A DNA stretch of 39,054 bases. It comes from a virus. Lineage: Duplodnaviria > Heunggongvirae > Uroviricota > Caudoviricetes. The DNA lies in IMG/VR virus record IMGVR_UViG_2874945390_000007; one strand, written 5' to 3'. A program made the position numbers and the translations under genes. Within the stretch, counting starts at the first letter, position 1. Each line of letters starts with the position of its first letter. The notes beneath the pieces were generated by a model. It saw only the letters and a program-made list of their open reading frames with translations. It did no database searches and was not told the DNA's origin. Shown one piece after another: positions 1 to 39,054 of the stretch.

Positions 1-551
1 TTATTTTGCCAACGCCAATTTAATGCTTTCCATCACAATGGGATCTTCCGGCGTCATATCCGGGGAAAAACGCTGGATGACTTTTCCGTCCCTGCCAACC
101 AGGAATTTTTCAAAATTCCATAAAATATCATCCGGGTACAGCGGTGCACGGCCTTTGCTGACCATACGGGCATAGAATCCGCTCTCTTCCGGCGCGACTG
201 CGGTCGGCGCTGCGGCAATCAATTTTTGATACAGCGGATGGCATCCTTCGCCATTAACTTCAATCTTACTGAACATCGGGAACGTCACCCCCCATGTGGT
301 GGTACAGTAAGTTTTAATCTCTTCATCGCTGCCCGGTTCTTGTTCCAGAAACTGGTTGCACGGGAATCCCAGCACCACAAAACCTCGATCGGCCAGGCTT
401 TCTGAATATTCTCCAACTGCTCATATTGCGGCGTTAAGCCACACTTTGAGGCGACATTGACAATCAACAGCACATTACCAGCGTACTTCTCCAGCGTGGT
501 CACTTCACCGTCGATATCTTTCACTACGGTCGTCAGAATGGAATCTTGCAT
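1..551 (-). pseudogene. btuE: btuE (glutathione peroxidase BtuE) with reading frame broken by an apparent 1-nt deletion
   Basis: Two minus-strand ORFs (285..551 N-terminal part MQDSILTTVVKDIDGEV...ENIQKAW; 1..378 C-terminal part ...GFPCNQFLEQEPGS...ESIKLALAK) together recapitulate BtuE; start-to-stop span is 551 nt (not a multiple of 3); frame switch falls near 390-397 in a short G/C run. Confidence 0.8.
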
Positions 552-613
552 CGTTTCTCCTGGGTGTGGTCAGTAAAAATCTTAGCTTTTAATCATAGAC
601 CGTCTTTTTGCGG

Positions 614-1594
614 CTAACGTCCTGCTTTTAACAATAACCAGATAAACACCGGCGCACCCAACGTTGCGGTGACCACGCCAATAGGCAGCTCTGCGGCAGC
701 TAATGCCAGGCGCGCTACAATATCGGCCAGCAGCAATGCGCTCGCCCCTGCCAGCGCGCAGCCGGGAAGTAATACGCGATGATCGGTTAAACCACACAAC
801 CGAAGAATATGTGGGATCACCAGACCAATAAAGCCGATAGCACCCGCCAGCGCCACACTGACGCCAACCATCCAGCCGGTCGCTGCCACCAGCACATTGC
901 GCCAGAACCACAGGGGTAAACCCAGTTGCCGCGCCGAGATCTCGCCAAGTGCTAACATATTCATCGGCCTGGACTGACAACAGATCCACAACAACACGGG
1001 GATCAATGCCAGCATCAGCCAGCTTTGCCGCCAGTCTACGCCGCCAAAACCGCCCATCATCCAGTACATCAGCTGACGTAAATCAACAGAGGTGGAAAAG
1101 TAGATAGCCCACGTCATTAGTGCGCTACAGATAATCCCTAATGCAACGCCAGCCAGCAATAACCGACTGGTCGAAAGATGACGACGGGCGAAACGTAAGA
1201 GTATTAAAGTGATGATAAGCGCGCCAGCAATCGCACACAGCCCTAGCGCCCAGTTGGGGAGTTGCCCTTGCCCAAGCAATACCGCGGCGATAAGCCCCAC
1301 GCCTGCGCCGTTAGAGACGCCAAGTAGTCCAGGTTCTGCCAGAGGATTTTCAAACAACGCCTTCATTACAGCGCCGGATATAGCCAGCGCCGCACCAACC
1401 AGCAATACAGCCAGCGTACGTGGCAGGCGAATTTGCCAGACGAACAGTTCGCCACGAGGAGTAAACCAGTCACCTGGCGAGATCCATTGTTCACCGGCGC
1501 AAAGGCTTAAGAGAAGCGCCAGCAGCATCAAAACTGACAGGCATAATAACCAGCGAATATTTTGTCGCTGTTGTTGGCGGGCAAGTGTCAGCAT
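614..1594 (-). CDS. btuC: vitamin B12 ABC importer permease BtuC
   Basis: 326-aa multi-TM protein [17 protein letters not shown]... recognisable as BtuC; immediately upstream of btuE as in the btuCED operon. Confidence 0.93.
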
Positions 1595-1786: not shown

Positions 1787-2224
1787 TCAGCCAACAAATT
1801 TAGCAACAAATACAGCAACCGCCGCTGTGAAAATGGTTGTGCACACTGGCACAATAATGCCACTCCAACGCCACTTCGTATTATCATCAACCTTGTCAAA
1901 CCGCCGATTCATCTCATCCATAATCTTGTCAAAGCGTTTATCCATCGCTTCGGTAAGCTCACCCTTCAGGCTGTTAATGTCTGATTTGAGCTGCTCTTTC
2001 AGGTTAGCTGTATCAGATTTAAGCTCACCTTTCAGATTCGCAATATCGCATTCAAGATCACCTTTCAGATGTGCTATGTCTGCTTTGAGTTCACCTTTCA
2101 CCTCACCAACATCGGCTTTAGTTGAGAGGTTTGTAGTGCGTTCAGCAAGCGTCGCAAGGTCGTTTCTTGTTAGCGATAAATCACCTTCGAGCCGCTCAAT
2201 TCGCCTTTCAAGTTTATCTGACAT
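1787..2224 (-). CDS. tail-anchored coiled-coil protein with 11-residue repeats and C-terminal transmembrane helix (phage accessory/moron gene)
   Basis: ORF 1787..2341; preferred start ATG at 2224 (MSDKLERRIERLEGDL...) preceded by GGAGG; repeats ...DIAHLKGDLEC DIANLKGELKS DTANLKEQLKS DINSLKGELTE...; hydrophobic C-terminus IIVPVCTTIFTAAVAVFVAKFVG. Confidence 0.6.
   Translation of the reverse strand: MSDKLERRIERLEGDLSLTRNDLATLAERTTNLSTKADVGEVKGELKADIAHLKGDLECDIANLKGELKSDTANLKEQLKSDINSLKGELTEAMDKRFDKIMDEMNRRFDKVDDNTKWRWSGIIVPVCTTIFTAAVAVFVAKFVG
1951..2112. repeat. about five imperfect 33-bp tandem repeats inside the coiled-coil gene
   Basis: Units such as ctgatttgagctgctctttcaggttagctgtat / cagatttaagctcacctttcagattcgcaatat / cgcattcaagatcacctttcagatgtgctatgt / ctgctttgagttcacctttcacctcaccaacat in head-to-tail array; period 33 bp = 11 codons. 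Confidence 0.8.
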
Positions 2225-2324
2225 TCCGCCTCCACTACTGCCGCCATCGCCACCATGATAAAGCACATCACGCTCAGAATGCGACACACTACCTGCTGAA
2301 TTACCGAAAAGATTTCTTGCTACA

Positions 2325-2825
2325 TTACCCATTATCACCATCCTGCGCTTTGTCTTTCTCCAACCACTTCAGCACCGCAGACGTACGATAAAGGCTCAGG
2401 TAACCACAATTCAGGCAATGCAGCGTGTAATAAGTTTTGCGCATATCAGGTATGCTCTTAACATCACCCAAAAAAGCATAAGATACATAATGCTTTATGT
2501 TCTCTTTAATTAACTCACTCTGTTCCTCCAGGGGTAGATTGTTAAAATTTTCTGGTTTCTTATTTTTATCCCAGCAAAGATCCATACTTTCTGGAACAGA
2601 TAATCGCGACGATCCACATGAAGGGCAGACACTGGAGACCCCCTTCTCAGACAAGAAACGGAAGAAGATTTCTGGCGTAATCTCCATCAGCCGCTCTTTA
2701 TGTTTTTTGACACGACTCATCGACTTCTTATTGATTTCATCAGCTTCTTCTTTGCATTTATCTTCTATATATTTCGATAGTAAATAGTCATATAACTCTT
2801 TTTTTGTAGGTTTTTTTATTTCCAT
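2325..2825 (-). CDS. hypothetical zinc-ribbon protein (two CxxC pairs), AT-rich cargo gene downstream of int
   Basis: 166-aa ORF MEIKKPTKKELYDYLLSKY... with CPSCG and CLNCG motifs; visibly AT-rich codon usage; start lies 3 nt after the int stop, same strand. Confidence 0.55.
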   Translation of the reverse strand: MEIKKPTKKELYDYLLSKYIEDKCKEEADEINKKSMSRVKKHKERLMEITPEIFFRFLSEKGVSSVCPSCGSSRLSVPESMDLCWDKNKKPENFNNLPLEEQSELIKENIKHYVSYAFLGDVKSIPDMRKTYYTLHCLNCGYLSLYRTSAVLKWLEKDKAQDGDNG

Positions 2826-2827
2826 AG

Positions 2828-3805
2828 TTACATTCCTCCCAAGGGATTAAACCTCACCGCATCCTGCAAGTAATCCGGCGCAAGATGGGCATAAATCATC
2901 GTTGTCTGAATCTTTGCGTGCCCCAGAATTTTCTGGAGCGTCAGAATATTGCCGCCGTTCATCATGAAATGACTGGCGAAGGTGTGGCGCAGCGCATGAA
3001 CAGCCTGGCCGTCAGGAACATCAGGTGCGACCGTTTTGATGACATCGCGAACCAATGAATAATCCAGCGTCGGAAACACCAGTTTCCCGCCCCGTTTTTT
3101 GATCTTTTCAAACAGGCTTTCAGAAATAGGAACGGTACGGTTTTTGCTGTTCTTCGTTTTTGAAAAAGTGATTCGACAATGAAGAACACGGCGCTGCTCC
3201 AGTGCCGCTACCTCGCCCCATCGCGCCCCGGTCGACAGAAGGATTTCGACGGCCAGCCGTTCATCGGGATTTTCAGCCAGTGCATCCAGCAACTGAACAC
3301 ATTCAGACTTACTCAGATATCCCATTTCACGCTCGTTAACCTTCATTCCTTTAAGGCCTTGAACGGGGTTATCGTTAAGAAAATGGCCGGATGAGATGAG
3401 TGCGGTAAACATCGCGCTTAACGCCCCAATCTCTCGATTTATGGTGCTGGGCTGTATCCCCTGCTCTATCCTGGACACACGTAGCTCGGTGAGCATCGTT
3501 GTATTAAGTTTATGCACGCACGGGTCATCCATTGCCTCACTCAAGCGCAGCAATTTAAGGCGCGTGTTATGCCCTGACTTCATTAGCTGGCCGTGGTATT
3601 TCCACCACAAGTCAATAAGCACTGACAGCGGACGGCGATCAATGGAGTTTCCTTTCCACTCATTGTTATGCTGTTGCGCCAGCACCCACCGCTCATATAA
3701 AACTGCATCCGATTTCGTTTTAAATTTTTTGCGAATGCGTTTGCCTTTACGCCCCTCAGGACGCATGTCAAGAAGATACCCTCCCGGAATTGATTTTATG
3801 CTCAT
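2828..3805 (-). CDS. int: P2-type tyrosine integrase
   Basis: ORF 2828..3955; start preferred at ATG 3805 (MSIKSIPGGYLLDMRPEGRKGKRIRKKF...) matching P2 Int N-terminus; conserved ...LSTGARWGEVA..., ...HALRHTFASHFMMNGGNILTLQKILGH...IYAH... catalytic region. Confidence 0.92.
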   Translation of the reverse strand: MSIKSIPGGYLLDMRPEGRKGKRIRKKFKTKSDAVLYERWVLAQQHNNEWKGNSIDRRPLSVLIDLWWKYHGQLMKSGHNTRLKLLRLSEAMDDPCVHKLNTTMLTELRVSRIEQGIQPSTINREIGALSAMFTALISSGHFLNDNPVQGLKGMKVNEREMGYLSKSECVQLLDALAENPDERLAVEILLSTGARWGEVAALEQRRVLHCRITFSKTKNSKNRTVPISESLFEKIKKRGGKLVFPTLDYSLVRDVIKTVAPDVPDGQAVHALRHTFASHFMMNGGNILTLQKILGHAKIQTTMIYAHLAPDYLQDAVRFNPLGGM

Positions 3806-3854
3806 TCGTGAAGCCCCAGCGTTACAAGACCACCATGCCCCCAGCGTTCCATGA

Positions 3855-4166
3855 TTAGCCGGGCTGTGTGCCAGTCTTGCGGGATTTTTGAGAAGACGAT
3901 GTGTTTTCTGGCCCATCAGGGGAGAGAGAAGGACTGATCTGCCCAGCAGCCTCATTTGTTTCGTTACTCATCAACCACGTAGTGTATTTTTTAAATTCCG
4001 GGTGCATTGTGATTTTCAGTAAAACCTCCGTTCCCACACCTCGAATACCAGTCTCGTATTGCTTAACCGTACCAACCGCAATACCTATTGAATCCGCGAA
4101 CTTTGCCTGACTAAGCCCCTCAGATTCTCGAATTGCTTTTAGCTTCTTTGATATCTCTATTGACAT
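3855..4166 (-). CDS. C: immunity repressor, P2 C-like
   Basis: ORF 3855..4268; start preferred at ATG 4166 (MSIEISKKLKAIRESEGLSQAKFADSIGIAVGTVKQYETG...) giving about 103 aa with N-terminal HTH and ...FKKYTTWLMSNE...GQISP... resembling P2 C; upstream of int on same strand. Confidence 0.8.
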   Translation of the reverse strand: MSIEISKKLKAIRESEGLSQAKFADSIGIAVGTVKQYETGIRGVGTEVLLKITMHPEFKKYTTWLMSNETNEAAGQISPSLSPDGPENTSSSQKSRKTGTQPG

Positions 4167-6600: not shown

Positions 6601-9423
6601 ATGACGGCAGAGTACATCAGGGACTGGCAACAACCGCGCCACGCAGTGGGGCGTGAAGGAACGGGGATCCCCGCTCCTGAATCCGCGCTTTCCTCCTGGC
6701 TGGATGCCCACCGGGCAGAGAACGAGCGCCGCCAGGAAATGGCTGATGCGGCGTTCTCCGCCACGCCACTGGGCAACCTGATTAATAAAAGCCTGGACGC
6801 ACAGGAAAAACAGGACAAAACCATCACACTGGCAGGAGACGCCAGAAAACAGGCACGCGGCGCGGTGGATGAAGCCATGGCCTCGCTGCGCCTGCTGCCG
6901 TCCTATCTGCGCGATCCGCTTATTCGCCACCTCTCCTTCCTGCGCAAAAAACAGGAAGCCGATCGCCGGAAAGGCAAAAAGAGCTGGCAGGCGGAACGCT
7001 ATGCACGCGGAACCCTGCGCAAAATATTCGAACGTCTGGATCGCACTGACGGACACTGGCTGACACCGGGTTATCGCTCCCTTGCCGGACGTGAACGCCT
7101 GGACGATTTGCTTTACCTGCCGCAACTCAACAAACACCAGATACAGACGCTGGCCACCATGACGGCGGCGATGTTCAGCAGCACCTTCGAAAAACTCTGC
7201 GATGGTTTTGGCGCGACTGATGGCGAGCTGACCATGGATGTAACGCTGAAGGCGTATCAGATGCTGGCCCGCATGGCGTTACACTTACACGCCATGCCTC
7301 CGCATTATGACGCACTGACAACAGACAAAGACCGGAGGCACGAACCGGACACAGAACTGCTGCCGGGCGCAATCCTTCGCCTGACCTGTGCGGAATGGTG
7401 GAAACGCAAACTGTGGCTGTTACGTTGCGAGTGGAGAGAAGAACAACTTCGCGCCGCCTGTCTGGTTTCCAGAAAAACATCGCCCTATCTGAGCCAGGAC
7501 GCGTTAAGCGAGTTTCGCGCACAGCGCGAGAAAACACGCGATTTCCTGAAAAGTTTCATGCTGGAAAATGAAGACGGGTTCACGATTGATCTCGAGACGG
7601 TGTATTACGCGGGAGTAAGTAACCCGGTTCACCGTAAGGCAGAAATGATGGCCACCATGAAGGGGCTGGAACTTCTGGCCGAAGCCCGTGGCGACAAAGC
7701 GGTGTTTCTGACTGTCACCTGCCCGTCAAAATACCACGCCACAACGGAGAACGGTCATCCGAATCCCAAATGGAACGGGGCCACAATGCGCGACTCCAGC
7801 GATTACCTGGTTAACACGTTTTTTGCGACGGTCCGCAAAAAACTGAACCGCGACGGCCTGCGCTGGTATGGCATCCGCACGGCGGAGCCTCACCATGACG
7901 GCACCGTGCACTGGCATATGATGGTCTTTGCTCATCCGGAAGAAATCGACACCATTGTGTCCCACACCCGCGATATTGCCATTCAGGAAGATCGTCACGA
8001 GCTGGGCGATGACATAACTCCGCGCTTTAAGGCGGAGTATGTAGACGGCTCAAAAGGCACGCCAACCAGCTACATCGCCACCTACATCGGGAAAAACCTG
8101 GACAGCCGCGCCGTGGATGGCATCGACCCGAAAACGGGCAAGCCACGCGTTGACCACGAAACCGGAAAATCAATGGCCGAGAGCGTGGAACGCGCCATCG
8201 GCTGGGCGCGCCTTCACCGGGTCCGCCAGTTCCAGTTCTTTGGCATCCCCTCCCGCCAGGTATGGCGTGAACTGCGCCGCCTTGCCAGCCAGATGGCACG
8301 CAACCCGGAAGGCCCGCAACGGCTGAAGGATGACGCAATGGATGCGGTTCTTGCCGCCGCTGATGCCGGATGTTTTGCCACCTACATAGAGAAACAGGGC
8401 GGCGTACTTGTTCCACGCAAAGACTACCTGATTCGCACCGCCTACGACCTCGCCGATGAGCTGAACGATTACGGCGAACAGAGCGTACAGATTTACGGGA
8501 TCTGGTCACCACTCATCGGGGAATCCTCCCGTGTGTGCACGCATCCGGATAACTGGAAGCTGGTAAGACGCAAACCGGAAGCGGAAGACAGCGCCCGCGA
8601 AAATGGTTTTGACCTTCAGGGCGGCCCTGCCGCCCCTTGGACTCGTGGCAATAACTGTCCCCGTGTACAGGAAACGGACAACAACGGGACAGAACAGCCG
8701 GAAGAACGGCCAGCACCGTGGCCGCAGCTCCCTGACGGCGTTGATGTGGATGAATGGATGCGCTCACTGAAACGGCACGAACGCCGGGCGCTGATGCGTT
8801 CGCTTCGTGACAAACAGGCAAAAAACAGCAGTGATGAAATGCAGAGCTGGACACAGAGCCGCAAACAGCAGCGGCCTTTGCCTGATAACCACGAATTACT
8901 CGCTAAAGAATGGCGGGAGTCTGCTGAATCTCTCGGCCTGCATATCGGTGAACAACAGATGCAGCACCTGTTACGGGGCGGCAGTCTGTACGTTGACGGC
9001 AGCATCATTGCACCGCAGGGATTTGAAATTGTACGCAAACCGGATACCCGCCCGGACAGCCGAATCACGCAGCTCTGGCAGCGCCTGAGCCGTAATCATG
9101 GCGTAAGCAGCACGGAGATCCGCCATAACCCGGTCGCCAGCTATCTGACACAGCTGGGGGCATCAGACCCTGAAGCCGCCGCACGCCTGGCATCCACACT
9201 TCAGCAGGACCAGAACACCATGAAAACACCCGTTACCGTGCTTTCTGACATGCTGCGCGCCATCCGCGACGCAGAGCACGCACAGAGAATCAGTGAAACC
9301 ACTGAACGCGCCCGCCGCAAAGCAGACCTGCTGCGGGGTGGCCTGACCAGTGGAAACAAAAAACAGACAGAAACGGGACTCACGAATCCCGTAAATGAGC
9401 AAAAAACGCGCAGCGATATATGA
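6601..9423 (+). CDS. A: replication initiation endonuclease (rolling-circle initiator), P2 gpA family
   Basis: 940-aa ORF; motifs ...FLTVTCPSKYHATTENG..., ...EPHHDGTVHWHMMVF..., ...SYIATYIGKNLD... match P2/186 A proteins; ORF is longer than P2 gpA so the true start may be internal. Confidence 0.9.
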   Translation: MTAEYIRDWQQPRHAVGREGTGIPAPESALSSWLDAHRAENERRQEMADAAFSATPLGNLINKSLDAQEKQDKTITLAGDARKQARGAVDEAMASLRLLPSYLRDPLIRHLSFLRKKQEADRRKGKKSWQAERYARGTLRKIFERLDRTDGHWLTPGYRSLAGRERLDDLLYLPQLNKHQIQTLATMTAAMFSSTFEKLCDGFGATDGELTMDVTLKAYQMLARMALHLHAMPPHYDALTTDKDRRHEPDTELLPGAILRLTCAEWWKRKLWLLRCEWREEQLRAACLVSRKTSPYLSQDALSEFRAQREKTRDFLKSFMLENEDGFTIDLETVYYAGVSNPVHRKAEMMATMKGLELLAEARGDKAVFLTVTCPSKYHATTENGHPNPKWNGATMRDSSDYLVNTFFATVRKKLNRDGLRWYGIRTAEPHHDGTVHWHMMVFAHPEEIDTIVSHTRDIAIQEDRHELGDDITPRFKAEYVDGSKGTPTSYIATYIGKNLDSRAVDGIDPKTGKPRVDHETGKSMAESVERAIGWARLHRVRQFQFFGIPSRQVWRELRRLASQMARNPEGPQRLKDDAMDAVLAAADAGCFATYIEKQGGVLVPRKDYLIRTAYDLADELNDYGEQSVQIYGIWSPLIGESSRVCTHPDNWKLVRRKPEAEDSARENGFDLQGGPAAPWTRGNNCPRVQETDNNGTEQPEERPAPWPQLPDGVDVDEWMRSLKRHERRALMRSLRDKQAKNSSDEMQSWTQSRKQQRPLPDNHELLAKEWRESAESLGLHIGEQQMQHLLRGGSLYVDGSIIAPQGFEIVRKPDTRPDSRITQLWQRLSRNHGVSSTEIRHNPVASYLTQLGASDPEAAARLASTLQQDQNTMKTPVTVLSDMLRAIRDAEHAQRISETTERARRKADLLRGGLTSGNKKQTETGLTNPVNEQKTRSDI

Positions 9424-9476
9424 AGCGCGCACAAAACAGGCAAAAACGGGATTTCAGAATCCCGTAAACGATTAAT
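9368..9476. repeat. two copies of a 25-bp palindromic motif bracketing the A stop codon, upstream of parM-like gene
   Basis: aaacgggactcacgaatcccgtaaa (about 9371..9395) and aaacgggatttcagaatcccgtaaa (about 9443..9467); each is an inverted repeat acggga-N-tcccgt. Confidence 0.7.
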
Positions 9477-9499
9477 TAATCAACATAAGGAAAAGCGAC

Positions 9500-10459
9500 A
9501 TGAAAATTTGTATCGACGACGGCTCCACCAACATCAAGCTGGCATGGACTGAGAACGGCGAACGCCGCAACGCCATCAGCCCGAACAGCTTCAAGTCGGA
9601 ATGGTCTGCGCCGTTCGGTGGCATGCAGCCCGCGAACTACATGCTTGATGGCGTGCGCTATGGTTTTGATCCGGTCAGCGATCGCTTTGTCCAGACAACC
9701 GACACGCAATACCAGTACAGCGATGTAAATGTCATTGCCATTCATCACGCGCTGGTCAAATCAGGCATCACGCCACAGGAGGTGGATGTGGTTGTCACCC
9801 TGCCACTGAGCGAGTATTTCGACACAAACGCACAGCCGGACATGGCCAACATCAACCGCAAAAAAGCGAACGTTATGCGCCCGGTGGAGTACCAGAACGG
9901 CGAAGCATTCACTATCCGTAACGTGCGGGTTATGCCTGAATCCATTCCGGCTGGCTTTAAGGCACTGGCTGACATGAGTCCGTTTGAATCCCTGCTGATT
10001 GTGGATTTGGGCGGAACCACGCTGGATGTGGCAAAGGTTCAGGGGCAACTGGCAGGTATCAGCCAGGTGTTTTGCGATCCACACGTAGGCGTTTCTCTGA
10101 TGGCCGATGCCGTACTGTCGGTGATGGCCACTAACGGTATGCGCACCAGTCACCACATCGCCAATACCATTATCGAACATCGCCATGATGAAGCCTGGCT
10201 GCGCCAGCACATCCACAATGACGCGCATTACGCCAGCCTGATGGCGGTTATTCGTGAAAAGGAAGAAACACTGAAACAACGCGTGATCCGCGCGCTGGCG
10301 GGTTTTTCGGGTTACGGGCGGGTGATGGTTGTCGGTGGAGGGGCGGAGATTGTGGCACCCGCTATCCGCGAAGCCTGCGGAGTTAATGCGACTTTCATCG
10401 CGGACGGGGTGCCACAGTTTGCTCTGGTTAATGGGCTGTACGCAATGGACAAGGAGTAA
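9500..10459 (+). CDS. parM: ParM/StbA-like actin-type partition ATPase
   Basis: 319-aa ORF MKICIDDGSTNIKLAW...YSDVNVIAIHHAL...VMPESIPAG...LLIVDLGGTTLD...VMVVGGGAE... aligns along its length with plasmid R1 ParM (StbA); RBS AAGGAAAAG upstream. Confidence 0.85.
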   Translation: MKICIDDGSTNIKLAWTENGERRNAISPNSFKSEWSAPFGGMQPANYMLDGVRYGFDPVSDRFVQTTDTQYQYSDVNVIAIHHALVKSGITPQEVDVVVTLPLSEYFDTNAQPDMANINRKKANVMRPVEYQNGEAFTIRNVRVMPESIPAGFKALADMSPFESLLIVDLGGTTLDVAKVQGQLAGISQVFCDPHVGVSLMADAVLSVMATNGMRTSHHIANTIIEHRHDEAWLRQHIHNDAHYASLMAVIREKEETLKQRVIRALAGFSGYGRVMVVGGGAEIVAPAIREACGVNATFIADGVPQFALVNGLYAMDKE

Positions 10460-10463
10460 ACCA

Positions 10464-10775
10464 ATGACGACACCAACCAGACGGATAAGTTTCTATCTGA
10501 AGCCTGCGGCCGTCAAGAACGAAAGCGAAGCATGCGCCTGGCTGGGCAGCCTTACACCAGAAGCCCGCAAAAGCGGCCAACGCGTGGCTTTTCTGGCCGG
10601 GCTGGCACTTCTGAAAATGAATCCAGCAGAGGCTTACCGACTGGCTGCATGGGCTGACGATGAGGCGTTATCGGTGACACAAACCAGGACAGAACGCCCC
10701 GTGCCACAGCCAGTACCAACCGCACAGATAACCAGTCAGATAGCAGGGAATATCCGGGCATTATTTCCTGAATGA
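10464..10775 (+). CDS. parR: ParR/StbB-like centromere-binding adaptor
   Basis: ORF 10329..10775; ATG 10464 (MTTPTRRISFYLKPAAVKNES...RVAFLAGLALL...) 5 nt after parM stop; N-terminal pattern resembles R1 ParR (RTIAFKLNP...RAALTAGLAL). Confidence 0.65.
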   Translation: MTTPTRRISFYLKPAAVKNESEACAWLGSLTPEARKSGQRVAFLAGLALLKMNPAEAYRLAAWADDEALSVTQTRTERPVPQPVPTAQITSQIAGNIRALFPE

Positions 10776-10835
10776 CGAATTTGACGGCTTTTAATTTTAT
10801 CGGGGTGCACTGTCGCCCCGCACGAGGAAAACACG

Positions 10836-11360
10836 ATGAAAAAATACGAATACATGCTAATGAAAGAAGCACTGCGGGCTGGTCTGGCTCCCTGTCCTGT
10901 ATCCGTAGAAGCTGTTGTTGGGAACACGATTTTCCGAACGCTGCGAAATCGCGTATCCGTGAAGATGGTTCACCAACCACCCAAATCTACCAGCATGATC
11001 TATCTGCCGCTGCCCGAGGCTATCAAACTTATGCGTTCGCTGAAATTTGCGATTTGGATGCAGACACAAATCAACAAAGCGGTGCAAAACACCTTCGTTA
11101 AGAGACTAATACCGGAGCTTGCTGCCAGATGTGCAAAATGTACCAGACCCGCACTTCAATTTGATCTGTCATTGATTCAACAAGCTACGGAGGCAGAACT
11201 GTACCGCCTGTCACCTATCCGTGATGCTCACACGGAAGCATCAGAAATGTTCCGGCTCATGTTTCAATTTAATTTTGCCGTTCGACGCACACGCGTTCAG
11301 GTCAATCGCATGATGCAGGAGCAGGAAGAGTTAACACAGTACAAAGGGGGCAGCCAGTGA
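10836..11360 (+). CDS. hypothetical protein (cargo in variable A-Q region)
   Basis: 174-aa ORF MKKYEYMLMKEALRAGLAPCP...; no recognisable family. Confidence 0.5.
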   Translation: MKKYEYMLMKEALRAGLAPCPVSVEAVVGNTIFRTLRNRVSVKMVHQPPKSTSMIYLPLPEAIKLMRSLKFAIWMQTQINKAVQNTFVKRLIPELAARCAKCTRPALQFDLSLIQQATEAELYRLSPIRDAHTEASEMFRLMFQFNFAVRRTRVQVNRMMQEQEELTQYKGGSQ

Positions 11361-11596
11361 GTAATTCAGCACGACTACAGCTTGGTTTTTCACCGCTATC
11401 AAAAACCATCGTATTGGCAAAAATGCGTGACTTAGGAGACGGAACAAAACGCCGCGTAGGAAATGATCGCGGTCGCGATGTAACCAACGAGGCCGCTCAA
11501 CTCGTTTGGCATCTAGTCATGGCAGAAGGCGGTGAAATTAATTGGGAGCTGGATGATGGTTCTCGTATGATTTTGAGGGCCGAGAAGAGTAAATAG
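11357..11596 (+). CDS. hypothetical small protein
   Basis: 79-aa ORF with GTG start overlapping previous stop. Confidence 0.4.
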   Translation: MSNSARLQLGFSPLSKTIVLAKMRDLGDGTKRRVGNDRGRDVTNEAAQLVWHLVMAEGGEINWELDDGSRMILRAEKSK

Positions 11597-11610
11597 CTCA
11601 AGGGGGATTA

Positions 11611-11796
11611 ATGCTAAATGATGATGAAGAAGAGCTGCTTATGCAGGAATGGTCGCTCGGTGATTATGATAATGGTGAAAATGGGTGCCCGCATTGTGGC
11701 CGTTATCGTTTATGTATCTGCCAGAATGGAAAACACAGATGTGAAAAGTGCAATTGGTCTCCGGAACTTAATGACTACGTGCCGATCGAGTGGTAG
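11611..11796 (+). CDS. small Cys-rich zinc-ribbon protein
   Basis: 61-aa ORF MLNDDEEELLMQEWSLGDYDNGENGCPHCGRYRLCICQNGKHRCEKCNW... with CxxC...CxC...CxxC arrangement. Confidence 0.5.
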   Translation: MLNDDEEELLMQEWSLGDYDNGENGCPHCGRYRLCICQNGKHRCEKCNWSPELNDYVPIEW

Positions 11797-11836
11797 AGGT
11801 AAGTCACACTAGGTGTTTTTTAGTTGATTTTATAAA

Positions 11837-11866
11837 TGCACAATAGTGCACAAATTTGCACAATTT
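11837..11866. repeat. three tandem 10-bp TGCACAA-containing repeats
   Basis: tgcacaatag tgcacaaatt tgcacaattt read directly; period 10 bp. Confidence 0.7.
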
Positions 11867-12235
11867 TTTTGAACGACTTTTTGCCCTTCCGGCCCGCGTG
11901 GCGGCTGGATCCGTCAAGGATCCGTGCATGCACAAAAAAACGCGTTTTTTCTGCGCGCAGGTGACGGGGGAACAGCCCGCGTTTCAGGGGGTAAATAGCA
12001 TTCCCTGAACGATGTCGCAGAGATACAACAGAATGGCTGTATTTCTCACGCTGAGCGTGAAAAAGACGTGAGGGCTTTTGATTTGATGGGGTGAAAGGTA
12101 AGGCCGTCAAAATCGCACTGAGACGGCGAGAATATGCAGTCAACGAGGTGGGATTGCGTAAGAGTCTGACTGTCGATGATGGCAATCAGCAGGAAAGCGT
12201 CGTGAAATTATCTGACTGATACAGGAGCTGGAGAG

Positions 12236-12287
12236 TCGGGGCATAAATTTTTTATGCCCCGGCGAAGCAGCAGACAAGCGAAGCGCG
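12236..12287. other. candidate cos / packaging region adjacent to portal gene
   Basis: Positional (P2 cos lies next to the 3' end of Q); perfect palindrome ggggcataaattttttatgcccc followed by ggcgaagcagcagacaagc, loosely reminiscent of the P2 cohesive-end sequence; exact cut site not established. Confidence 0.35.
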
Positions 12288-13334
12288 TCAGGATGTGGGC
12301 TGGGTGTCTAACAGTGCGTAAGGGTTAAAGCGGATCACCTCTTCGCCAAGCCAGTCATTGATGTGCTTCATGGCCTCCATGACGGGCATCAGCTCGTTAA
12401 TTGCGTAAACCCGCGCGGCCTTCTCCACATCACCAAACGCACTTTTTTCGCCCGGCATCGCCCCCATCAGTTGCGGCGGAACGCGGTGCGCAGCCAGCAC
12501 ATCATCACGGGATGCCGCCTTAACATTCATGAACTCATCCTTTGCGGTGATCTGCTGGAACGGCAAAATTTGCACCCCCTCTTTGCCCCCGTTGGGCGCA
12601 TGAATGAGCACGTTTTTAAACGCACCACCACCACGTGCCCCCTGTAGCGTTTCTTTCAGGGAGTCCATGCTTTCGCGGTTTACCTGCGCTGCACCGATGT
12701 AGATGATGCACCCGGCGTGGGATCCGTTGTCGTAGTACAGTTTTCTGAACATGTCCGCCGAATGAGAAAGGCTGGCCGAGAGTAATGCGCCAAGATATTC
12801 CGGCATGCCGTAGATTTCCTGGTTAATATCCGGATTCATCAGGTGGCACACTTTGCCAGGACGAAACTGAAACGCATCCTTGCCATCCTGCACATACCAC
12901 CATGATTCAAGATCGCTTCCGCGTCGCATGTATTTCGCCAGGGCGTGCCGTAATTTAAGCGGTTCGCCGAGCATATTGCTCCGAAGCTCAAGGAATGCGT
13001 TACCGAACACAAACCAGTCCAGCGCCAGCGCCGAGAAATCCTGCCGGGAAAGCAGCGGGTGCGGAATATAGCAGCCGAGCAATACATTGCGCTTAAAGTA
13101 AAGCGCAGACTGATGCCAGGACGTTTGCCGGGCAGCTCTTGCCAGACCGTACCAGTCCACCGGGGTTTCATACCACCGCCCGTTATCAGCACAGTACATA
13201 TTGTCCAGCAGGTCATGCCCGGTCAGGCGGTAAGGACCATCAAATGTGAATGCACTGAGCGACGATTCTTTCCTGAGCGCATCAGCGAGATCAATGCGTG
13301 AACTCATGCGCACTTTTTTATTTTTTCTGCTCAT
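12288..13334 (-). CDS. Q: portal protein, P2 gpQ family
   Basis: 348-aa ORF; size and position (leftward, paired with terminase, next to cos) as P2 Q; start ATG overlaps P stop. Confidence 0.85.
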   Translation of the reverse strand: MSRKNKKVRMSSRIDLADALRKESSLSAFTFDGPYRLTGHDLLDNMYCADNGRWYETPVDWYGLARAARQTSWHQSALYFKRNVLLGCYIPHPLLSRQDFSALALDWFVFGNAFLELRSNMLGEPLKLRHALAKYMRRGSDLESWWYVQDGKDAFQFRPGKVCHLMNPDINQEIYGMPEYLGALLSASLSHSADMFRKLYYDNGSHAGCIIYIGAAQVNRESMDSLKETLQGARGGGAFKNVLIHAPNGGKEGVQILPFQQITAKDEFMNVKAASRDDVLAAHRVPPQLMGAMPGEKSAFGDVEKAARVYAINELMPVMEAMKHINDWLGEEVIRFNPYALLDTQPTS

Positions 13335-15085
13335 CAGAACTCCATAACCGTGAAACGCTCGTTTTCTCCTTCGCCGCCAATCGGTTCGTTAATGACAGCA
13401 AGCATGGTTGCCCACGCAAGGTCGCCGTGGCTGATCCCCCTCGCGCGGTCCGTTTCGTAAGTGATAAAACCGCCCGGTGTTTTCACCTTACGCACGGCGT
13501 TAAAGGCCGCAACCAGCTCGCGTTCGGCGCGATCGTATTCCCACCGCCCGGCACGCATTATTTGCAGCATTTTCAGTACCAGCGACCGTTTTGATGACAG
13601 CGTGAAGGTGTAAGGGATGGCGGCGGGAAAAAACCGTTTCACTATCTGATAGACGGCATCCCCGTGCCCGCCCGTCGCATCAATGCCGATGTGTTCCACG
13701 TTGTAGCGATACGTGAACTCTTCAATAACTCTGGCCTGCTCTTCAAATTCCAGCCCCTGAACGCGTCGCGTCTCCACCGTTCTGAAACGACCACCAGGAA
13801 CAGCCGGAGGAACCACCACGGACACAGCGCCGCTGTCGCCGTTACCACTGCTGCCGTTTGCGTCATACCCAATCCATACCGGACGATTCCCCATCGGGCG
13901 GGGGGCAAAGGGTTTCCAGTCTTTCCAGTCGTCGTATCCGTCAACACCGCAGCCAATCAGGATATTCAGGTTAAATGCCGATTCCCCTTCGCGGACAAAC
14001 TCACACATATAGAGATTGCGGAACTCGTCTTCGGTGTTTTCATCACGAATTTCATCAATATCGGTGTGTTTCCAGCCGTGATTAACCACATCTTCCAGCG
14101 TGACAATTTGCCGCCACGTCCGGTCAGGGCAGATAAGCCCGTTATGCAGCGTTTTCCAGTCCACAGAAAAACGCTGGCGTTTATGCGCGGCCTTTTTCTC
14201 GTTCCAGCGGTCGCCGTTCCAGTAGGCGTATGCCTCGTGCGTTTCGGTGGATGGCGTGGAGAAGCAGGTGCGCCGCAGTCCGCTGAGGGTTGCCATAGCG
14301 CCAGCCACCTTGCGCAGTTCAGCAAAGCGACTGACCCAGAAAAATTCATCAAAATAAAAATTGCCCGTGTAAGATTGCGCCGTCGCAGCAGAAGTGCCGA
14401 GAAAATGCATCTCTGCGCCGTTGGAGAGGATGATTTTATCGCCCCCTTTCAGCTCCACATCGACTTCAGCCGCGGCCTTCTGAATAATGCTTTTAAACTG
14501 GAACGCCTGACGACGCGACGCAGACAAAAAAATCTGGTTACGCTGGTAAGGTTGTGCCACATCGTCACGCAGCGCCATCAGCAGTGCTTCCTGTGCAAAA
14601 TACCAGGTCGCCCCAATCTGTCGGGATTTCAGGATCATCCTGTTACGTATCCCGGCTTCCCTGCAAAGCGTCAGGGAGTCAAACCAGCCCCGCTGATGCC
14701 ACTCCAGCCTGCTGATGATTTTTTCCCGCAGTGCGGCAATCTGTTCCGGCGTGAAATGATTTTTGAGTTTTTTCGCCCGGCCTTTCTTTCCTGTGGCCGT
14801 CGCATCCGGCTGGCCATCATGCAGTTTTTTAAGCTGCCGGGTCAGCAGGTCTATTTCCTTAAAGTCACCACCTGTTTTATTCTGTTTTTCAGTAAGCTGG
14901 ATGAGGCGCGCATCGATGGACTGCGTGACACGCTGCACGGGTGGCGTTTCATCCCACTGGTCGCGTTTTTTCCACGCATAAATCGTGTTCGGGTTTATTC
15001 CCATCAGACGTGATATTTCTGCGGGCGGATAACCCTGCCAGTAAAGTTGCCGCGCACGCTGGCGCACAAAAGCGTCCTGAATCAT
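13334..15085 (-). CDS. P: terminase large (ATPase) subunit, P2 gpP family
   Basis: 583-aa ORF MIQDAFVRQRARQLYWQGYPPAEISRLMGINPNTIYAWKKRDQWDE... typical gpP N-terminus; leftward like P2 P. Confidence 0.9.
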   Translation of the reverse strand: MIQDAFVRQRARQLYWQGYPPAEISRLMGINPNTIYAWKKRDQWDETPPVQRVTQSIDARLIQLTEKQNKTGGDFKEIDLLTRQLKKLHDGQPDATATGKKGRAKKLKNHFTPEQIAALREKIISRLEWHQRGWFDSLTLCREAGIRNRMILKSRQIGATWYFAQEALLMALRDDVAQPYQRNQIFLSASRRQAFQFKSIIQKAAAEVDVELKGGDKIILSNGAEMHFLGTSAATAQSYTGNFYFDEFFWVSRFAELRKVAGAMATLSGLRRTCFSTPSTETHEAYAYWNGDRWNEKKAAHKRQRFSVDWKTLHNGLICPDRTWRQIVTLEDVVNHGWKHTDIDEIRDENTEDEFRNLYMCEFVREGESAFNLNILIGCGVDGYDDWKDWKPFAPRPMGNRPVWIGYDANGSSGNGDSGAVSVVVPPAVPGGRFRTVETRRVQGLEFEEQARVIEEFTYRYNVEHIGIDATGGHGDAVYQIVKRFFPAAIPYTFTLSSKRSLVLKMLQIMRAGRWEYDRAERELVAAFNAVRKVKTPGGFITYETDRARGISHGDLAWATMLAVINEPIGGEGENERFTVMEF

Positions 15086-36716: not shown

Positions 36717-38219
36717 ATGAACAAAAAGCTGTATTTATTCCCAGACTCAAACATTTTTCTACAATGCAAGGACTTGACGCAGGTAAATTTTTCCGAGATT
36801 ACTGCTTGTGATGAAGTATGTATCATTATTACAAGGCCCATTCAGCAAGAGATTGACCGCCAGAAAGGGCAAGGTAATTCCCGCCTATCCAAAAAAGCAA
36901 GGAAGGCTGCTAGCCTATTTAATCAAGTAGTTGATTCAACTGACATGACTCTTGTTATTCGTGAACGCTCGCCGCGAGTTTTTCTTACCATGGATCTAAG
37001 CCTGAAACCATGTGAACAGTTATCTGAACAATTGGATTATCAGGAGGCCGACGATCGTTTTGTTGGTATTGCGGCAGGGTATTGCGCTGACGATCCAGAT
37101 TCGGAGGTGGCAATCATTACCAATGATAGCGGTCCACGTTTTTCAGCAATAAAACATAATATAATCTGCTATAAAGTGCCTTCTTCATGGTTGCTTCCTG
37201 CTGAGCCAGATGAAAAGGATAAACAAATTAAATTGCTGGAAGCTAAGCTGAAGCAATTCACTCAGTCTATGCCCGATTTCAGCATTAAAGTAGCCGATGA
37301 CGAGCAATTAAATATTGTACTTCCTTATTATACAGCTTTATCTGAATATGAAGTTGATAATTTGCTTTGTCAACTAACGGATGCATTCCCATTGGTTACA
37401 AACTTTGACAATGAACAAACTACCCCACAATCACTAGAAAAAATCATCAAGTCATTTAGTCAACAGGAGTATTTCCCTGTATCAGCAGATGATATTTCTC
37501 TTTATAAAGAAAAACATTATCCACTTTGGAAAAAGCAGTGTGAAGAAATACTGAAAAACTGTCATACTCATATTAATCCGAAGGCAATAAATTACCCGCT
37601 GTCGTTTTTATTACAAAACACAGGTTATACTATCGCTGAACGTGCTGTGGTAACATTTACAGCAAAAGGAGATTTTCGTCTGTGTGGATTTAATTGGGAG
37701 ATAATGGAAGAGCTGACTGAAAGCAAAAGGATTGACCTACCTTCAGCCCCTACCGCCCCCAAAGGAAAATGGCGTAGTGTATGTGGCGTAACAGAAAGAA
37801 TGCCTTACGCTGGGGGAGCTTTGGAAACACCGCTATCCAGTATAATTTCAAAAGAAATTGGTCCTTTGTTATCTCTTACTCCAACAGAAAGGGATAAAAA
37901 CGATTTTTATTATAAAGAAAAGAGAAATGAGCCAGTTCAAGTTGTATCGCTGGAATGCGAAGAGTGGCGTCATCAAGTCAAAGAAGAAATATTCCCGTTG
38001 TTCGTATATACAGCCAACAAACCAAAGAAAGTGAATGGTGCAATTGAGGTGAGAGTTGATGCAAATAACCTTACCAATCCGGTCATTAAAACATTTAAAT
38101 TAAAAATAACTATAGAAGAACATAGTGCATTTTCAACCATAACAGAAATGGTGCAGACATACATTCAAGAGCAGAAGAAAAGACAGAAAAGTTCTATTAG
38201 CGCACAAATCAAAACATGA
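36717..38219 (+). CDS. PIN-like nuclease domain protein (N-terminal PIN fold, about 350-aa C-terminal region of unknown function); candidate defence gene
   Basis: 500-aa ORF; N-terminus MNKKLYLFPDSNIFLQ... (first acidic residue), ...QQEIDRQ..., ...DDRFVGIAAGY..., ...VAIITNDSGP... fit the four-acidic-residue PIN pattern; visibly AT-rich relative to flanking D and ogr; AT-rich promoter-like upstream region with TTGATA hexamers. Confidence 0.6.
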   Translation: MNKKLYLFPDSNIFLQCKDLTQVNFSEITACDEVCIIITRPIQQEIDRQKGQGNSRLSKKARKAASLFNQVVDSTDMTLVIRERSPRVFLTMDLSLKPCEQLSEQLDYQEADDRFVGIAAGYCADDPDSEVAIITNDSGPRFSAIKHNIICYKVPSSWLLPAEPDEKDKQIKLLEAKLKQFTQSMPDFSIKVADDEQLNIVLPYYTALSEYEVDNLLCQLTDAFPLVTNFDNEQTTPQSLEKIIKSFSQQEYFPVSADDISLYKEKHYPLWKKQCEEILKNCHTHINPKAINYPLSFLLQNTGYTIAERAVVTFTAKGDFRLCGFNWEIMEELTESKRIDLPSAPTAPKGKWRSVCGVTERMPYAGGALETPLSSIISKEIGPLLSLTPTERDKNDFYYKEKRNEPVQVVSLECEEWRHQVKEEIFPLFVYTANKPKKVNGAIEVRVDANNLTNPVIKTFKLKITIEEHSAFSTITEMVQTYIQEQKKRQKSSISAQIKT

Positions 38220-38462: not shown

Positions 38463-38723
38463 ATGTTCCGTTGTCCGCTTTGTGGCGCATCTGCCCGTAT
38501 CCGCACCAGTCGTCCGGAAAATGATTCAAACACCGTGCGGCAAAAGTATTACCAGTGTAACAATCTGGAATGCGGCGTATGCTTCTCAACACTGGAAGCT
38601 TTCCATAAATTCACATCAAAACACGCCTCCGGCGTTCACTCTTCAGAAGATATCCCGTGGCATGATCTGCCAGCTTCACACAGGGGAAACAATCAGATGA
38701 GCTTGCCTTTACCTCAGAATTAA
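38463..38723 (+). CDS. ogr: late gene transcriptional activator, Ogr/Delta zinc-finger family
   Basis: 86-aa ORF MFRCPLCGASARIRTSRPENDSNTVRQKYYQCNNLECGVCFSTLEAFHKF... with CxxC...CxxxxC as in P2 Ogr. Confidence 0.9.
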   Translation: MFRCPLCGASARIRTSRPENDSNTVRQKYYQCNNLECGVCFSTLEAFHKFTSKHASGVHSSEDIPWHDLPASHRGNNQMSLPLPQN

Positions 38724-38783: not shown

Positions 38784-38996
38784 ATGGTCGGAGGGAATAC
38801 CCGAAGGCCAGATGTGGAAAGGCCCCGGAAAACATCTCTGTTTAACCGAGGCCCTAACCGCATTACCTTGACAAGTGAAAGGTTAGCGCCTCTCCGGAAA
38901 AGGAGCAAGTGCTATGTCGCAAAAATCGCTTACGACCATCACGTTCTGCGTGACGGCAATCCTCATCATCTGGATGTTGCACGGTTCGCTGTGTGA
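38784..38996 (+). CDS. possible Mok-like overlapping reading frame
   Basis: 70-aa ORF overlapping the hok-like start in another frame, same size class as R1 mok; support is positional only. Confidence 0.3.
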   Translation: MVGGNTRRPDVERPRKTSLFNRGPNRITLTSERLAPLRKRSKCYVAKIAYDHHVLRDGNPHHLDVARFAV

Positions 38997-39054
38997 AATA
39001 CGGATGAGCTTCTGGGGAGCGGAGTTTGCGGCGTTCTTACAGTGTAAGCAGTAA
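38914..39054 (+). CDS. Hok/Gef-family type I toxin (46 aa), not in ORF track
   Basis: ATG 38914 with AGGAG upstream; translation MSQKSLTTITFCVTAILIIWMLHGSLCEIRMSFWGAEFAAFLQCKQ has TM helix plus SLCEIR and AAFL motifs shared with Hok/HokA; stop codon is the last 3 nt of the window. Confidence 0.7.
   Translation: MSQKSLTTITFCVTAILIIWMLHGSLCEIRMSFWGAEFAAFLQCKQ

Follow-up and report, generated by a model that had tools for sequence, protein, structure and literature searches.

The region from 9373 to 10775 of the window (the whole stretch of 39,054 nucleotides that was analyzed) is probably a complete and fixed type II (ParMRC-type) partition cassette that segregates circular DNA, and the region that follows it, 10776-11836, a separate hotspot. 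More tentatively, P88-like phages may apply an actin-like ParM spindle to their own circles while these replicate, in the interval that opens with infection or induction and closes with integration or packaging. The features on which the text relies are as follows.

2828-3955: integrase
6601-9423: gene A (Phage_GPA), upstream of parM
9373..9392, no strand assigned: candidate parC box 1, palindrome ACGGGACT-CACG-AATCCCGT, within the last codons of gene A
9446..9465, no strand assigned: candidate parC box 2 (possible operator), palindrome ACGGGATT-TCAG-AATCCCGT, in the A-parM intergenic region
9471..9483, + strand: conserved ATTAAT(T)AATCAA box immediately 5' of the parM RBS, perhaps a -10 element or a feature of the leader
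9500..10459, + strand: parM, actin-like segregation ATPase, 319 aa (Pfam and R1 ParM alignment)
10464..10775, + strand: parR, small DNA-binding adaptor, 103 aa (PF10784, phrog_2515)
10776..10835, + strand: left edge of the hotspot, GC-rich hairpin CGGGGTGCACTGTCGCCCCG after parR
10836..11360, + strand: ORF174, orphan-family cargo gene, 174 aa
11357..11596, + strand: ORF79, DUF7446 / phrog_1578 cargo gene, 79 aa, GTG start
11611..11796, + strand: ORF61, acidic zinc-ribbon cargo gene, 61 aa (phrog_24897 over its full length)
11837..11864, no strand assigned: right edge of the hotspot, three TGCACAA repeats phased at 10 bp, with which sequence conservation resumes on the cos side
12288-15085, minus strand: portal and terminase, downstream of the cassette

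The prophage and its parM and parR genes

The window is an integrated P88-like prophage, with the host genes btuE/btuC at its left flank. Its genome is near-identical to and collinear with that of phage P88, which places it in the genus Xuanwuvirus (P88-like) of the Peduoviridae. The conserved flanks of the 9300-12300 region (65% of the query) were 97.2% identical to P88 (NC_026014), in which the same A-parM-parR-cargo-portal layout was found, while the cargo between these flanks gave no match. The ParM proteins of the window and of P88 are 99.7% identical. Since gene A lies upstream and the portal and terminase genes downstream, the parMR interval corresponds to the A-to-Q position of P2, a documented hotspot (PMC9122126). 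An earlier, sequence-only reading of this interval had described five ORFs between 9500 and 11796 of an integrating phage; all five were recovered at their coordinates on the + strand, and the integrase and the btuE/btuC flank agree with integration.

That reading had also recognized an R1 ParM/StbA homolog, and this was borne out. ParM matched the Pfam families StbA_N (2.7e-82) and ParM C-terminal domain (1.3e-68), and it aligned end to end with R1 ParM (PDB 1mwk; E 8.5e-93, about 50% identity). The sequence-only reading had named a lack of the actin-fold nucleotide-binding motifs on alignment as evidence against it. In the alignment to 1mwk all of them were retained (IDDGSTNIK, VMPESIPAG, DLGGTTLD and GGGAE), so that ParM carries the phosphate-1, phosphate-2, adenosine and connect motifs of the actin-fold ATPase of type II systems. 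Furthermore, the parM ORF was unbroken in 86 of 86 related P88-like loci. Nucleotide diversity reached 0.054 at its third codon positions and 0.0056 at positions 1+2, a ratio (positions 1+2 to position 3) of about 0.10; the adjoining 3' part of A gave 0.38. Judged from these codon-position values, parM is under strong purifying selection.

The protein encoded directly downstream, 4 nt after the parM stop, had been called ParR-like, and its identity was established by matches to PF10784 (Plasmid_stab_B, 2e-23) and, over its full length, to phrog_2515. It is thus a ParR-type adaptor directly 3' of parM, as in type II systems, by its family match and by the retention of two elements, the N-terminal strand and the C-terminal tail, which are conserved across phage, plasmid and ICE homologues. 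Among the E. coli alleles, the strand (TRRISFYLKP) is nearly invariant and the tail (NIxxLFPE) is conserved apart from minor substitutions; phage, plasmid and ICE ParRs have the motif N[AI]xx[LM]F of this tail in common. The linker is hypervariable. parR was intact in about 83 of the 86 loci. Covariation between ParR alleles and the sequences of the upstream boxes was looked for and none was found, because the DNA-reading strand of ParR is essentially invariant.

Upstream boxes as a candidate parC

The motif CGGGA-N9-CCCG occurs at three sites in the window, against 0.24 expected. In an alignment of three genera, the two GGG-N10-CCC boxes upstream of parM were the conserved blocks that stood out, together with the ATTAAT(T)AATCAA box as a third. 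Measured from the parM ATG, box 1 keeps its place in the phages of Plesiomonas and Hafnia, where its flanks have diverged, and the box-to-box spacing is 73 bp in E. coli, 72 bp in Plesiomonas and 73 bp in Hafnia. Within E. coli, box 2 varied mostly at the central loop positions, and a C>T change at 9463, inside its CCC arm, was present in 15 of 63 haplotypes. The diversity of the A-parM intergenic region within E. coli (0.06) is about that of synonymous sites, so that the case for constraint is made by the comparison across genera. In the Serratia/Enterobacter clade the upstream architecture is different and consists of a long inverted repeat. A tandem iteron array was looked for as parC and was not found; the candidate sites are two only. 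The palindromes 73 bp apart upstream of parM are put forward as a candidate minimal parC, and such a two-box centromere would be unusually small.

A scan for a sigma-70 promoter between A and parM gave no match of at least 9/12, so that a promoter call at the ATTAAT box is one that we infer: the box could provide parMR with a promoter of its own that works in lysogens. No + strand terminator was predicted between A and parM.

Other candidate elements were set aside. The RNA folding of the region upstream of parM (z = -3.6) is put down to the two similar palindromes and not counted as a sign of an RNA element. A third ParR box within the hairpin after parR, at 10801-10820, was rejected since related loci have different GC hairpins there. 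The array of three TGCACAA repeats was considered as the real parC and is more likely cos-associated, because it forms a fixed boundary on the cos side at any distance from parR.

Distribution of parMR and limits of the adjacent hotspot

The sequence-only reading had treated the whole interval as variable cargo. For parMR, this view was not upheld. The two genes were present in 1307 of 5426 complete E. coli genomes (about 24%; range 1278-1307) and P88-type gene A in 1320. All the parMR copies in these genomes were at least 90% identical, and 1453 of the 1455 places were chromosomal. From these counts, parMR is fixed beside P88-type gene A and belongs to the replication module, not to the cargo. 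The order gpA-ParM-ParR-cargo-portal was also found in P2-like prophages of Plesiomonas, Hafnia, Serratia and Enterobacter, whose ParM proteins are 54-63% identical to that of the window; parMR is thus conserved, in synteny, across five genera. The possibility had been raised that the cassette is universal and syntenic in all P2-like phages, as an ordinary replication accessory. This holds within the P88-like lineage and fails outside it: parMR is absent from P2 and 186, and among 50,697 phage records only D6 otherwise has an R1-type ParM. Phage 500465-2 was considered as a contrast devoid of parMR and was discarded, its record being a badly delimited prophage.

No plasmid ParM among more than 5000 compared exceeded 52% identity to the phage ParM, which argues against a recent pick-up. 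In neighbor-joining trees, the phage proteins formed two clades with bootstrap values of 100/100 each. The sister grouping of these clades was weak (48-53/100), so that a single ancient acquisition is not established. A related ParMR was observed in a Dickeya ICE.

By comparison of the loci, the real variable hotspot is 10776-11836 and starts after parR. The related loci carry other GC hairpins after parR and diverge from there on. In 53 loci, 26 different cargo sets were counted, that of the window being present in 4. Content varied between near-identical prophages for ORF174, ORF79 and ORF61 but not for parMR. On the other side, the 40 retrieved P88-like loci that extend this far all have the TGCACAA tandem repeat. 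In annotation, the limits of P88-type hotspots would therefore be better drawn from the parR stop to the TGCACAA repeats than from gene A.

Profile searches of the five proteins, suggested earlier, confirmed ParM and ParR, assigned ORF79 to DUF7446 and left ORF174 without a family. ORF174 had no match in Pfam, PHROGs, NCBIfam, PADLOC or PDB; it forms 8 clusters only at 90% identity, and an exhaustive profile search among 1.84 billion proteins returned 3 representatives only. Its AF2 model, built from a 5-sequence alignment, had a mean pLDDT of 49.9. In other prophages, ORF174 is paired with different downstream genes. In the window its stop is overlapped by 4 nt by the start of ORF79, whose DNA homologues (80-91% identity) are found in lambdoid, P22-like and P1-like phages, where they occupy the 'ea' accessory region beside Ead/EaA genes. 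ORF61 had been described as a zinc ribbon, correctly: it contains CxxC...CxxC, with a weak Pfam match that indicates generic zinc-ribbon similarity only. Searches of the three small ORFs in PADLOC, NCBIfam and PDB returned nothing useful, and with E values up to 1 none of the five proteins had a PADLOC match. ORF174, ORF79 and ORF61 are small accessory genes (morons) unrelated to parMR.

Possible role of the cassette and its relation to known systems

By analogy with characterized systems, the most likely role of the cassette is to move or segregate circular extrachromosomal phage DNA during A-dependent replication. ParR dimers would bind the two palindromes upstream of parM and, as in the R1 system, the conserved ParR C-terminal tail would capture the ends of ParM-ATP filaments, whose growth would push circular phage genomes apart. 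As the cassette lies directly after gene A with no predicted terminator, parMR is probably expressed together with the early replication proteins. The substrate would be the double-stranded circles produced by A-dependent replication, either after infection and before integration or after induction. In this way, copies would be distributed over the cell and reach both daughters rather than clump or become lost, to the benefit of the phage. A literature search on ParM/StbA with P2-like phages, Peduoviridae, Xuanwuvirus and Citrobacter phiSM found no functional study, and the P88 paper does not mention the parMR genes.

A possible, though rather unlikely, alternative is a lytic role like that of AlpAC, in which ParMR positions or transports the replicating circles, e.g. 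to a replication or packaging site, and raises replication and burst size. The position 3' of a replication gene would suit it, and in CGP3 AlpA/AlpC are induced early and their loss halves the circular phage DNA (PMC4446434). However, AlpC is a distant actin relative, whereas the phage ParM is a close homologue of the R1-type protein, whose known activity is the bipolar pushing of plasmid pairs; moreover, P2, 186 and other relatives lack such genes and still replicate well. We consider it improbable that parMR gives the prophage a facultative existence as a stable low-copy plasmid instead of integration. This is exactly the proposal of Rousset et al. 2022 (PMC9122126), and it agrees with the deposition of one complete P88-like genome as a circular 'plasmid' of 34,461 bp (NZ_CP148288.1), with a hok/gef toxin gene, a plasmid-type stability gene, also carried on the P88-like phage, and with the use of a ParM/StbA system by D6, itself a plasmid prophage. 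A single circular contig can, however, simply be induced phage DNA, and of 72,556 plasmid records only 7 contain P88-type parMR, in most cases inserted into a very large replicon. The integrase is kept in every member examined. With its integrase, its insertion beside btuC and the almost exclusively chromosomal places of parMR, the prophage is not a phage-plasmid in the sense of an extrachromosomal, non-integrating element. Its replication protein is a P2-type gene A initiator, which drives rolling-circle replication and is not known to support a controlled plasmid copy number.

It is still harder to favor exclusion, in which ParR and/or ParM made by the lysogen would act against incoming related phages or plasmids with the same centromere. 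P2 keeps its exclusion genes old and tin in the A-to-Q interval, palindrome 2 covers the -35 position of the conserved -10-like box, so that the two could form an autoregulated lysogen promoter, and conflict might produce a linker as variable as that of ParR. But the alleles hardly differ in the boxes or in the DNA-reading strand of ParR, so that there is no sign of diversification of specificity; in addition, PADLOC matches are lacking, parMR does not vary like the neighboring defence cargo, and homologous phages are already blocked by immunity. That parMR forms one five-gene defence or exclusion system with the small ORFs, a co-option envisaged by the sequence-only reading, or else is an inert relic, is hardly credible. 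The genes are co-directional and tightly packed in a known defence hotspot, but 26 unrelated cargo sets were found beside this same parMR, on which ground a joint defence system was rejected, and ORF79 homologues lie in lambdoid 'ea' regions without parMR. The intact parM ORFs, the strong purifying selection and the conservation across five genera speak against a relic. The earlier interpretation was thus partly supported; its ideas of an episomal phase and of DNA positioning are plausible hypotheses.

If parMR is functional in segregating phage circles, a very common E. coli prophage lineage would have its own DNA-segregation motor, the efficiency of lysogeny establishment or of replication would be affected, and the line between integrating phages and phage-plasmids would be blurred. 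A ParM spindle would introduce a cytoskeletal step into the life cycle of an ordinary integrating coliphage, and it could raise lysogenization, allow a transient plasmid-like carrier state or organize lytic replication. In P88-like phages, the hotspot next to parMR also holds many defence cargos. Study of the system is straightforward, as phage P88, R1 ParM tools and standard plasmid-loss assays all exist.

Among the closest known systems is R1 / IncFII ParMRC (StbA/StbB), with which the phage cassette shares the parC-parM-parR order (parC as a candidate), a ParM with about 50% identity from end to end and every nucleotide-binding motif, a ParR of the same Pfam family (PF10784) and, as in plasmid ParRs, the N-terminal strand and the N-x-x-x-[LM]-F C-terminal tail. 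It differs in being located on a tailed phage that integrates, immediately 3' of a P2-type gene A initiator, and by its ParM, which forms a clade of its own, at most 52% identical to plasmid ParMs. R1 parC consists of ten iterons (2 x 5 direct 11-bp repeats), whereas the phage candidate centromere is made of two palindromes rather than iterons.

The presence of parMR was already known, as the genes are annotated in RefSeq and GenBank and were noted by Rousset et al. 2022. A partition system, called unexpected by the sequence-only reading, is in fact not so, since these authors reported that about one P2-like phage in four has a putative plasmid partitioning system, with StbA and Plasmid_stab_B between gpA and gpQ in their Table S5A (PMC9122126). 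These are the same genes, treated there as hotspot content with a one-line guess at plasmid maintenance (PMC9122126); the present comparisons add their fixation to P88-type A, a hotspot that begins after parR, a parC candidate and cross-genus synteny.

Two experimental precedents concern integrated elements. The CGP3 prophage AlpA/AlpC/alpS system combines an actin-like ATPase with a DNA-binding adaptor, AlpA, that binds repeats upstream of its own operon; it is induced early, acts on excised circles soon after induction, and without it circular phage DNA is not replicated efficiently (Donovan et al. 2015; PMC4446434). It is set apart, by description, by another actin subfamily, an unrelated adaptor and a Gram-positive Corynebacterium host, and its proposed function is transport to the membrane for replication, not segregation (PMC4446434). 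SrpMRC of SXT/R391 is likewise a type II partition system on a normally integrated element; its expression is limited to activated elements, and it stabilizes the excised replicating form, which is transient (Carraro et al. 2015; PMC4489591). However, SXT/R391 is conjugative, and a ParR domain is not recognizable in SrpR, whereas the phage protein clearly belongs to PF10784. The StbA-type genes of the P1-like phage D6 (ParM identity 47.8%) belong to a 91-kb non-integrating plasmid prophage, where a partition system is expected. As the genes were already annotated and precedents exist on integrated elements, the present result extends known biology and does not define a new category.

ParMR genes and their surroundings

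The window is an integrated copy of the phage, carrying a tyrosine integrase and flanked by host btuE and btuC, in keeping with the integrating P2-like phage proposed by the sequence-only reading. Two conserved parts of the region, namely the end of gene A plus parMR and the flank on the cos side, share 97% identity with Escherichia phage P88 (Peduoviridae, Xuanwuvirus). The cargo between these conserved flanks has no match to P88, in which the order is likewise A, parM, parR, a few small genes and portal. The ORF list reproduced exactly the ParM, ParR and three co-directional ORFs first described.

Features of the window
285-1594: host btuE and btuC, left flank
2828-3955: tyrosine integrase
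6601-9423, plus strand: gene A, 940 aa (Phage_GPA, 6.6e-131)
9373-9392: box 1 palindrome ACGGGACTCACGAATCCCGT, within the last codons of A
9446-9465: box 2 palindrome ACGGGATTTCAGAATCCCGT, 73 bp from box 1
9500-10459, plus strand: parM, 319 aa, starting 76 bp past gene A
10464-10775, plus strand: parR, 103 aa, downstream of parM
10836-11360, plus strand: ORF174, 174 aa, matching nothing
11357-11596, plus strand: ORF79, 79 aa (DUF7446 / phrog_1578)
11611-11796, plus strand: ORF61, 61 aa, the zinc ribbon already recognized by eye (phrog_24897)
11837-11864: TGCACAA x3 in 10-bp phase, exact first conserved cos-side sequence of the hotspot
from 12288, minus strand: portal and terminase genes
38463-38723: ogr, right end
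38914-39054: hok/gef toxin, right end (Hok/Gef family, PF01848, 29 bits)

By homology, the 319-aa protein is unambiguously ParM. It was matched by the Pfam StbA_N (2.7e-82) and ParM C-terminal (1.3e-68) domains and by phrog_691 ('partition protein'), and was aligned end to end with R1 ParM (PDB 1mwk; E 8.5e-93, about 50% identity). IDDGSTNIK, VMPESIPAG, DLGGTTLD and GGGAE are all retained, so that the suggested R1 ParM/StbA homology held down to the nucleotide-binding motifs. The ParR-like assignment of the next protein was borne out by PF10784 (Plasmid_stab_B, StbB/ParR family; 2e-23) and, over its full length, by phrog_2515. Among E. coli P88-like prophages, ParR alleles are about 50% identical overall, against 98-100% for ParM. 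Their N-terminal strand TRRISFYLKP is nearly invariant and their C-terminal tail NIxxLFPE is conserved with minor substitutions, whereas the linker (window 10650-10745, residues ~64-93; loci L010-L089) is hypervariable; the tail motif N[AI]xx[LM]F is common to phage, plasmid and ICE ParRs. Conserved ends around a variable linker are the pattern that would be expected if DNA binding and ParM capture were both maintained.

Other parts of the prophage deserve mention. Gene A has a C-terminal extension of ~430 aa past Phage_GPA (8113-9423, residues ~504-940), without a Pfam match, and its final codons overlap box 1. The Hok/Gef ORF has a P88 counterpart, gp52; parMR and hok, the two stability determinants of R1, thus both have homologues in the prophage. 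Tail gene D and ogr are separated by a 38% GC island, a second accessory-gene position, which encodes a 500-aa protein (36717-38219) whose N terminus carries a PIN_4 domain. The protein had no PADLOC match; its gene is a candidate for nuclease defence or for a toxin. Between host btuC and the integrase (1787-2825, minus strand), a position at which P88 has no genes, lie two low-GC ORFs. One encodes a 184-aa coiled-coil protein with weak matches to LmuB/ZorA coiled-coil segments, the other a 166-aa protein whose C terminus is a zinc ribbon.

Fixed parMR beside a variable cargo

With parMR alone as megablast query, the pair was found in 1307 of 5426 complete E. coli genomes, at 1455 places of which 1453 are chromosomal, every match being at least 90% identical. 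P88-type gene A occurs in 1320 complete E. coli genomes, so that linkage of the two is nearly perfect. Of 86 related loci (80 from IMG/VR), all have an intact parM and about 83 an intact parR, the others having a parR cut at a contig end (two) or a premature stop (one). Across 63 haplotypes, codon positions 1+2 of parM have a nucleotide diversity of 0.0056, against 0.054 for position 3 (0.024 and 0.063 in the neighbouring 3' part of A), a contrast indicating strong purifying selection on parM. The pair is a fixed lineage feature and a member of the P88-lineage replication module, not cargo, and this membership extends to P88 relatives in other genera. A decayed P88-like prophage of E. coli O157:H7 strain 1130 (NZ_CP017434.1) is without head genes and its tape-measure gene is frameshifted, yet A, parM and parR are intact, with IS1203 directly after parR.

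Conservation with P88 and its relatives ends at the parR stop codon and restarts at 11837; as judged from these alignments, the true hotspot is bounded by the parR stop on one side and by the TGCACAA x3 array on the other. In the 81% coverage class of the E. coli megablast, the left recombination boundary often falls within parR. The array was present in all 40 fetched P88-like loci reaching that point and is probably a protein-binding site tied to cos or packaging; as direct repeats one helical turn apart, the copies also resemble sites of the recombination-directionality-factor (Cox/Apl) type. In 53 loci spanning both edges, the interval measures 537-2004 bp and holds 26 cargo arrangements, which, read from the sequences, include ATPase + Toprim (PARIS-like), Phd/Doc-like, DUF4760, Ead/Ea22-like and other genes. 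The earlier description of a variable cargo site is therefore valid for the region of the three small ORFs and not for parMR, linked as it is to P88-type A. In other P88-like hotspots (L021, L024, L050 and L085), cargo resembling known systems was identified by eye. A 399-aa ATPase partnered by a 174-aa Toprim-like protein is PARIS-like, and another pair is Phd/Doc-like; an HTH-peptidase is accompanied by a PIN protein, and a 268-aa protein is DUF3800-like.

ORF174, ORF79 and ORF61 occur together in 4 of the 53 loci, and as a set in none of the complete E. coli genomes. ORF174 is an orphan (8 clusters in a 5.8-billion-protein set; 3 representatives among 1.84 billion) and is paired with different neighbours in other prophages; ORF79 homologues are found in P22-like and lambdoid phages, within the 'ea' accessory region. 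Given these variable arrangements, differing neighbours and 'ea' locations, the three are independent accessory genes (morons), and their working together with ParMR was rejected.

Candidate parC and expression

A 42-nt repeat containing one palindrome occurs twice upstream of parM. CGGGA-N9-CCCG has three sites in the window against 0.24 expected; the third of them, a CGGGA-N8-TCCCG palindrome at 32329-32346, is located among the tail genes, 23 kb from the other two, and may be a chance occurrence. A three-genus alignment showed conservation in three blocks only: the two GGG-N10-CCC boxes (73, 72 and 73 bp apart) and an ATTAAT(C)AA box preceding the ribosome-binding site. The Serratia/Enterobacter clade differs upstream, with an inverted repeat of ~20 nt and a spacer of ~26 nt. 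No tandem iteron array was present. Within E. coli the A-parM intergenic region is as polymorphic as synonymous sites, with changes mostly in the palindrome loops. The two boxes are a reasonable candidate for a minimal parC/operator.

Between A and parM, no plus-strand terminator was predicted and no good sigma-70 promoter was found, so that parMR is most simply taken to be expressed by read-through from the early replication operon. A promoter repressed by ParR may also exist, given the conserved ATTAAT box and the location of box 2 over the -35 position.

Origin and probable role

The order gpA-ParM-ParR-cargo-(ogr)-portal-terminase recurs in P2-like prophages of Plesiomonas, Serratia, Hafnia and Enterobacter, with ParMs at 54-63% identity. 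More than 5000 plasmids have ParM homologues, all at most 52% identical, a few P88-like inserts excepted, and among 50,697 phage records R1-type ParM was confined to P88-like phages and plasmid prophage D6. These identities and this distribution count against a recent plasmid origin. Homologues ~50% identical occur in a Dickeya ICE and a Mangrovibacter integrated plasmid. NJ trees gave two phage clades, E. coli+Hafnia+Plesiomonas and Serratia+Enterobacter (bootstrap 100/100 each), whose union reached only 48-53/100.

The best-supported reading, which we consider rather probable, is a working ParMRC cassette acting on extrachromosomal circular phage DNA during A-dependent replication. The pay-off would be segregation into daughter cells (SrpMRC-like) or positioning for replication (AlpAC-like). 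Stable plasmid lysogeny would agree with the hok/gef gene also carried by the phage and with one complete circular 34.5-kb P88-like record; since chromosomal integration is overwhelming (1453/1455 places), it is unlikely as the norm. That record (NZ_CP148288.1, 34,461 bp), a P88-like genome with integrase deposited as an E. coli 'plasmid', could be a true episome or merely assembled induced phage DNA. An exclusion role in lysogens is possible but unsupported. The idea that parMR had been co-opted with the small ORFs into a composite defence system is contradicted by the independence of those ORFs, and neither ParM, ParR nor any of the three had a PADLOC match. An inert relic is likewise contradicted, parM being under purifying selection.

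Rousset et al. 2022 (PMC9122126) analysed the gpA-gpQ interval of E. coli P2-like prophages and list StbA and Plasmid_stab_B in their tables. They ascribed a putative partition system to about one in four P2-like phages and suggested that it might serve plasmid-like maintenance. The P88 paper does not mention the parMR genes, and our literature search found no functional study of them. The sequence-only reading is thus confirmed as an observation and in part as an interpretation. As the feature was already annotated and noted in the literature, its novelty is low; added here are the place of parMR in the replication module, the hotspot edges, the candidate two-box parC and the three small ORFs as unrelated cargo. 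What an actin-like segregation motor contributes to an integrating phage that is present in a quarter of E. coli genomes is an easily testable question. On two integrated elements, actin-type systems have been shown by experiment to work. In CGP3, AlpA/AlpC are induced early, bind repeats that precede their own operon and are required for efficient replication of the circular phage DNA (PMC4446434); in SXT/R391, SrpMRC stabilises the excised form and is expressed only when the element is activated (PMC4489591).
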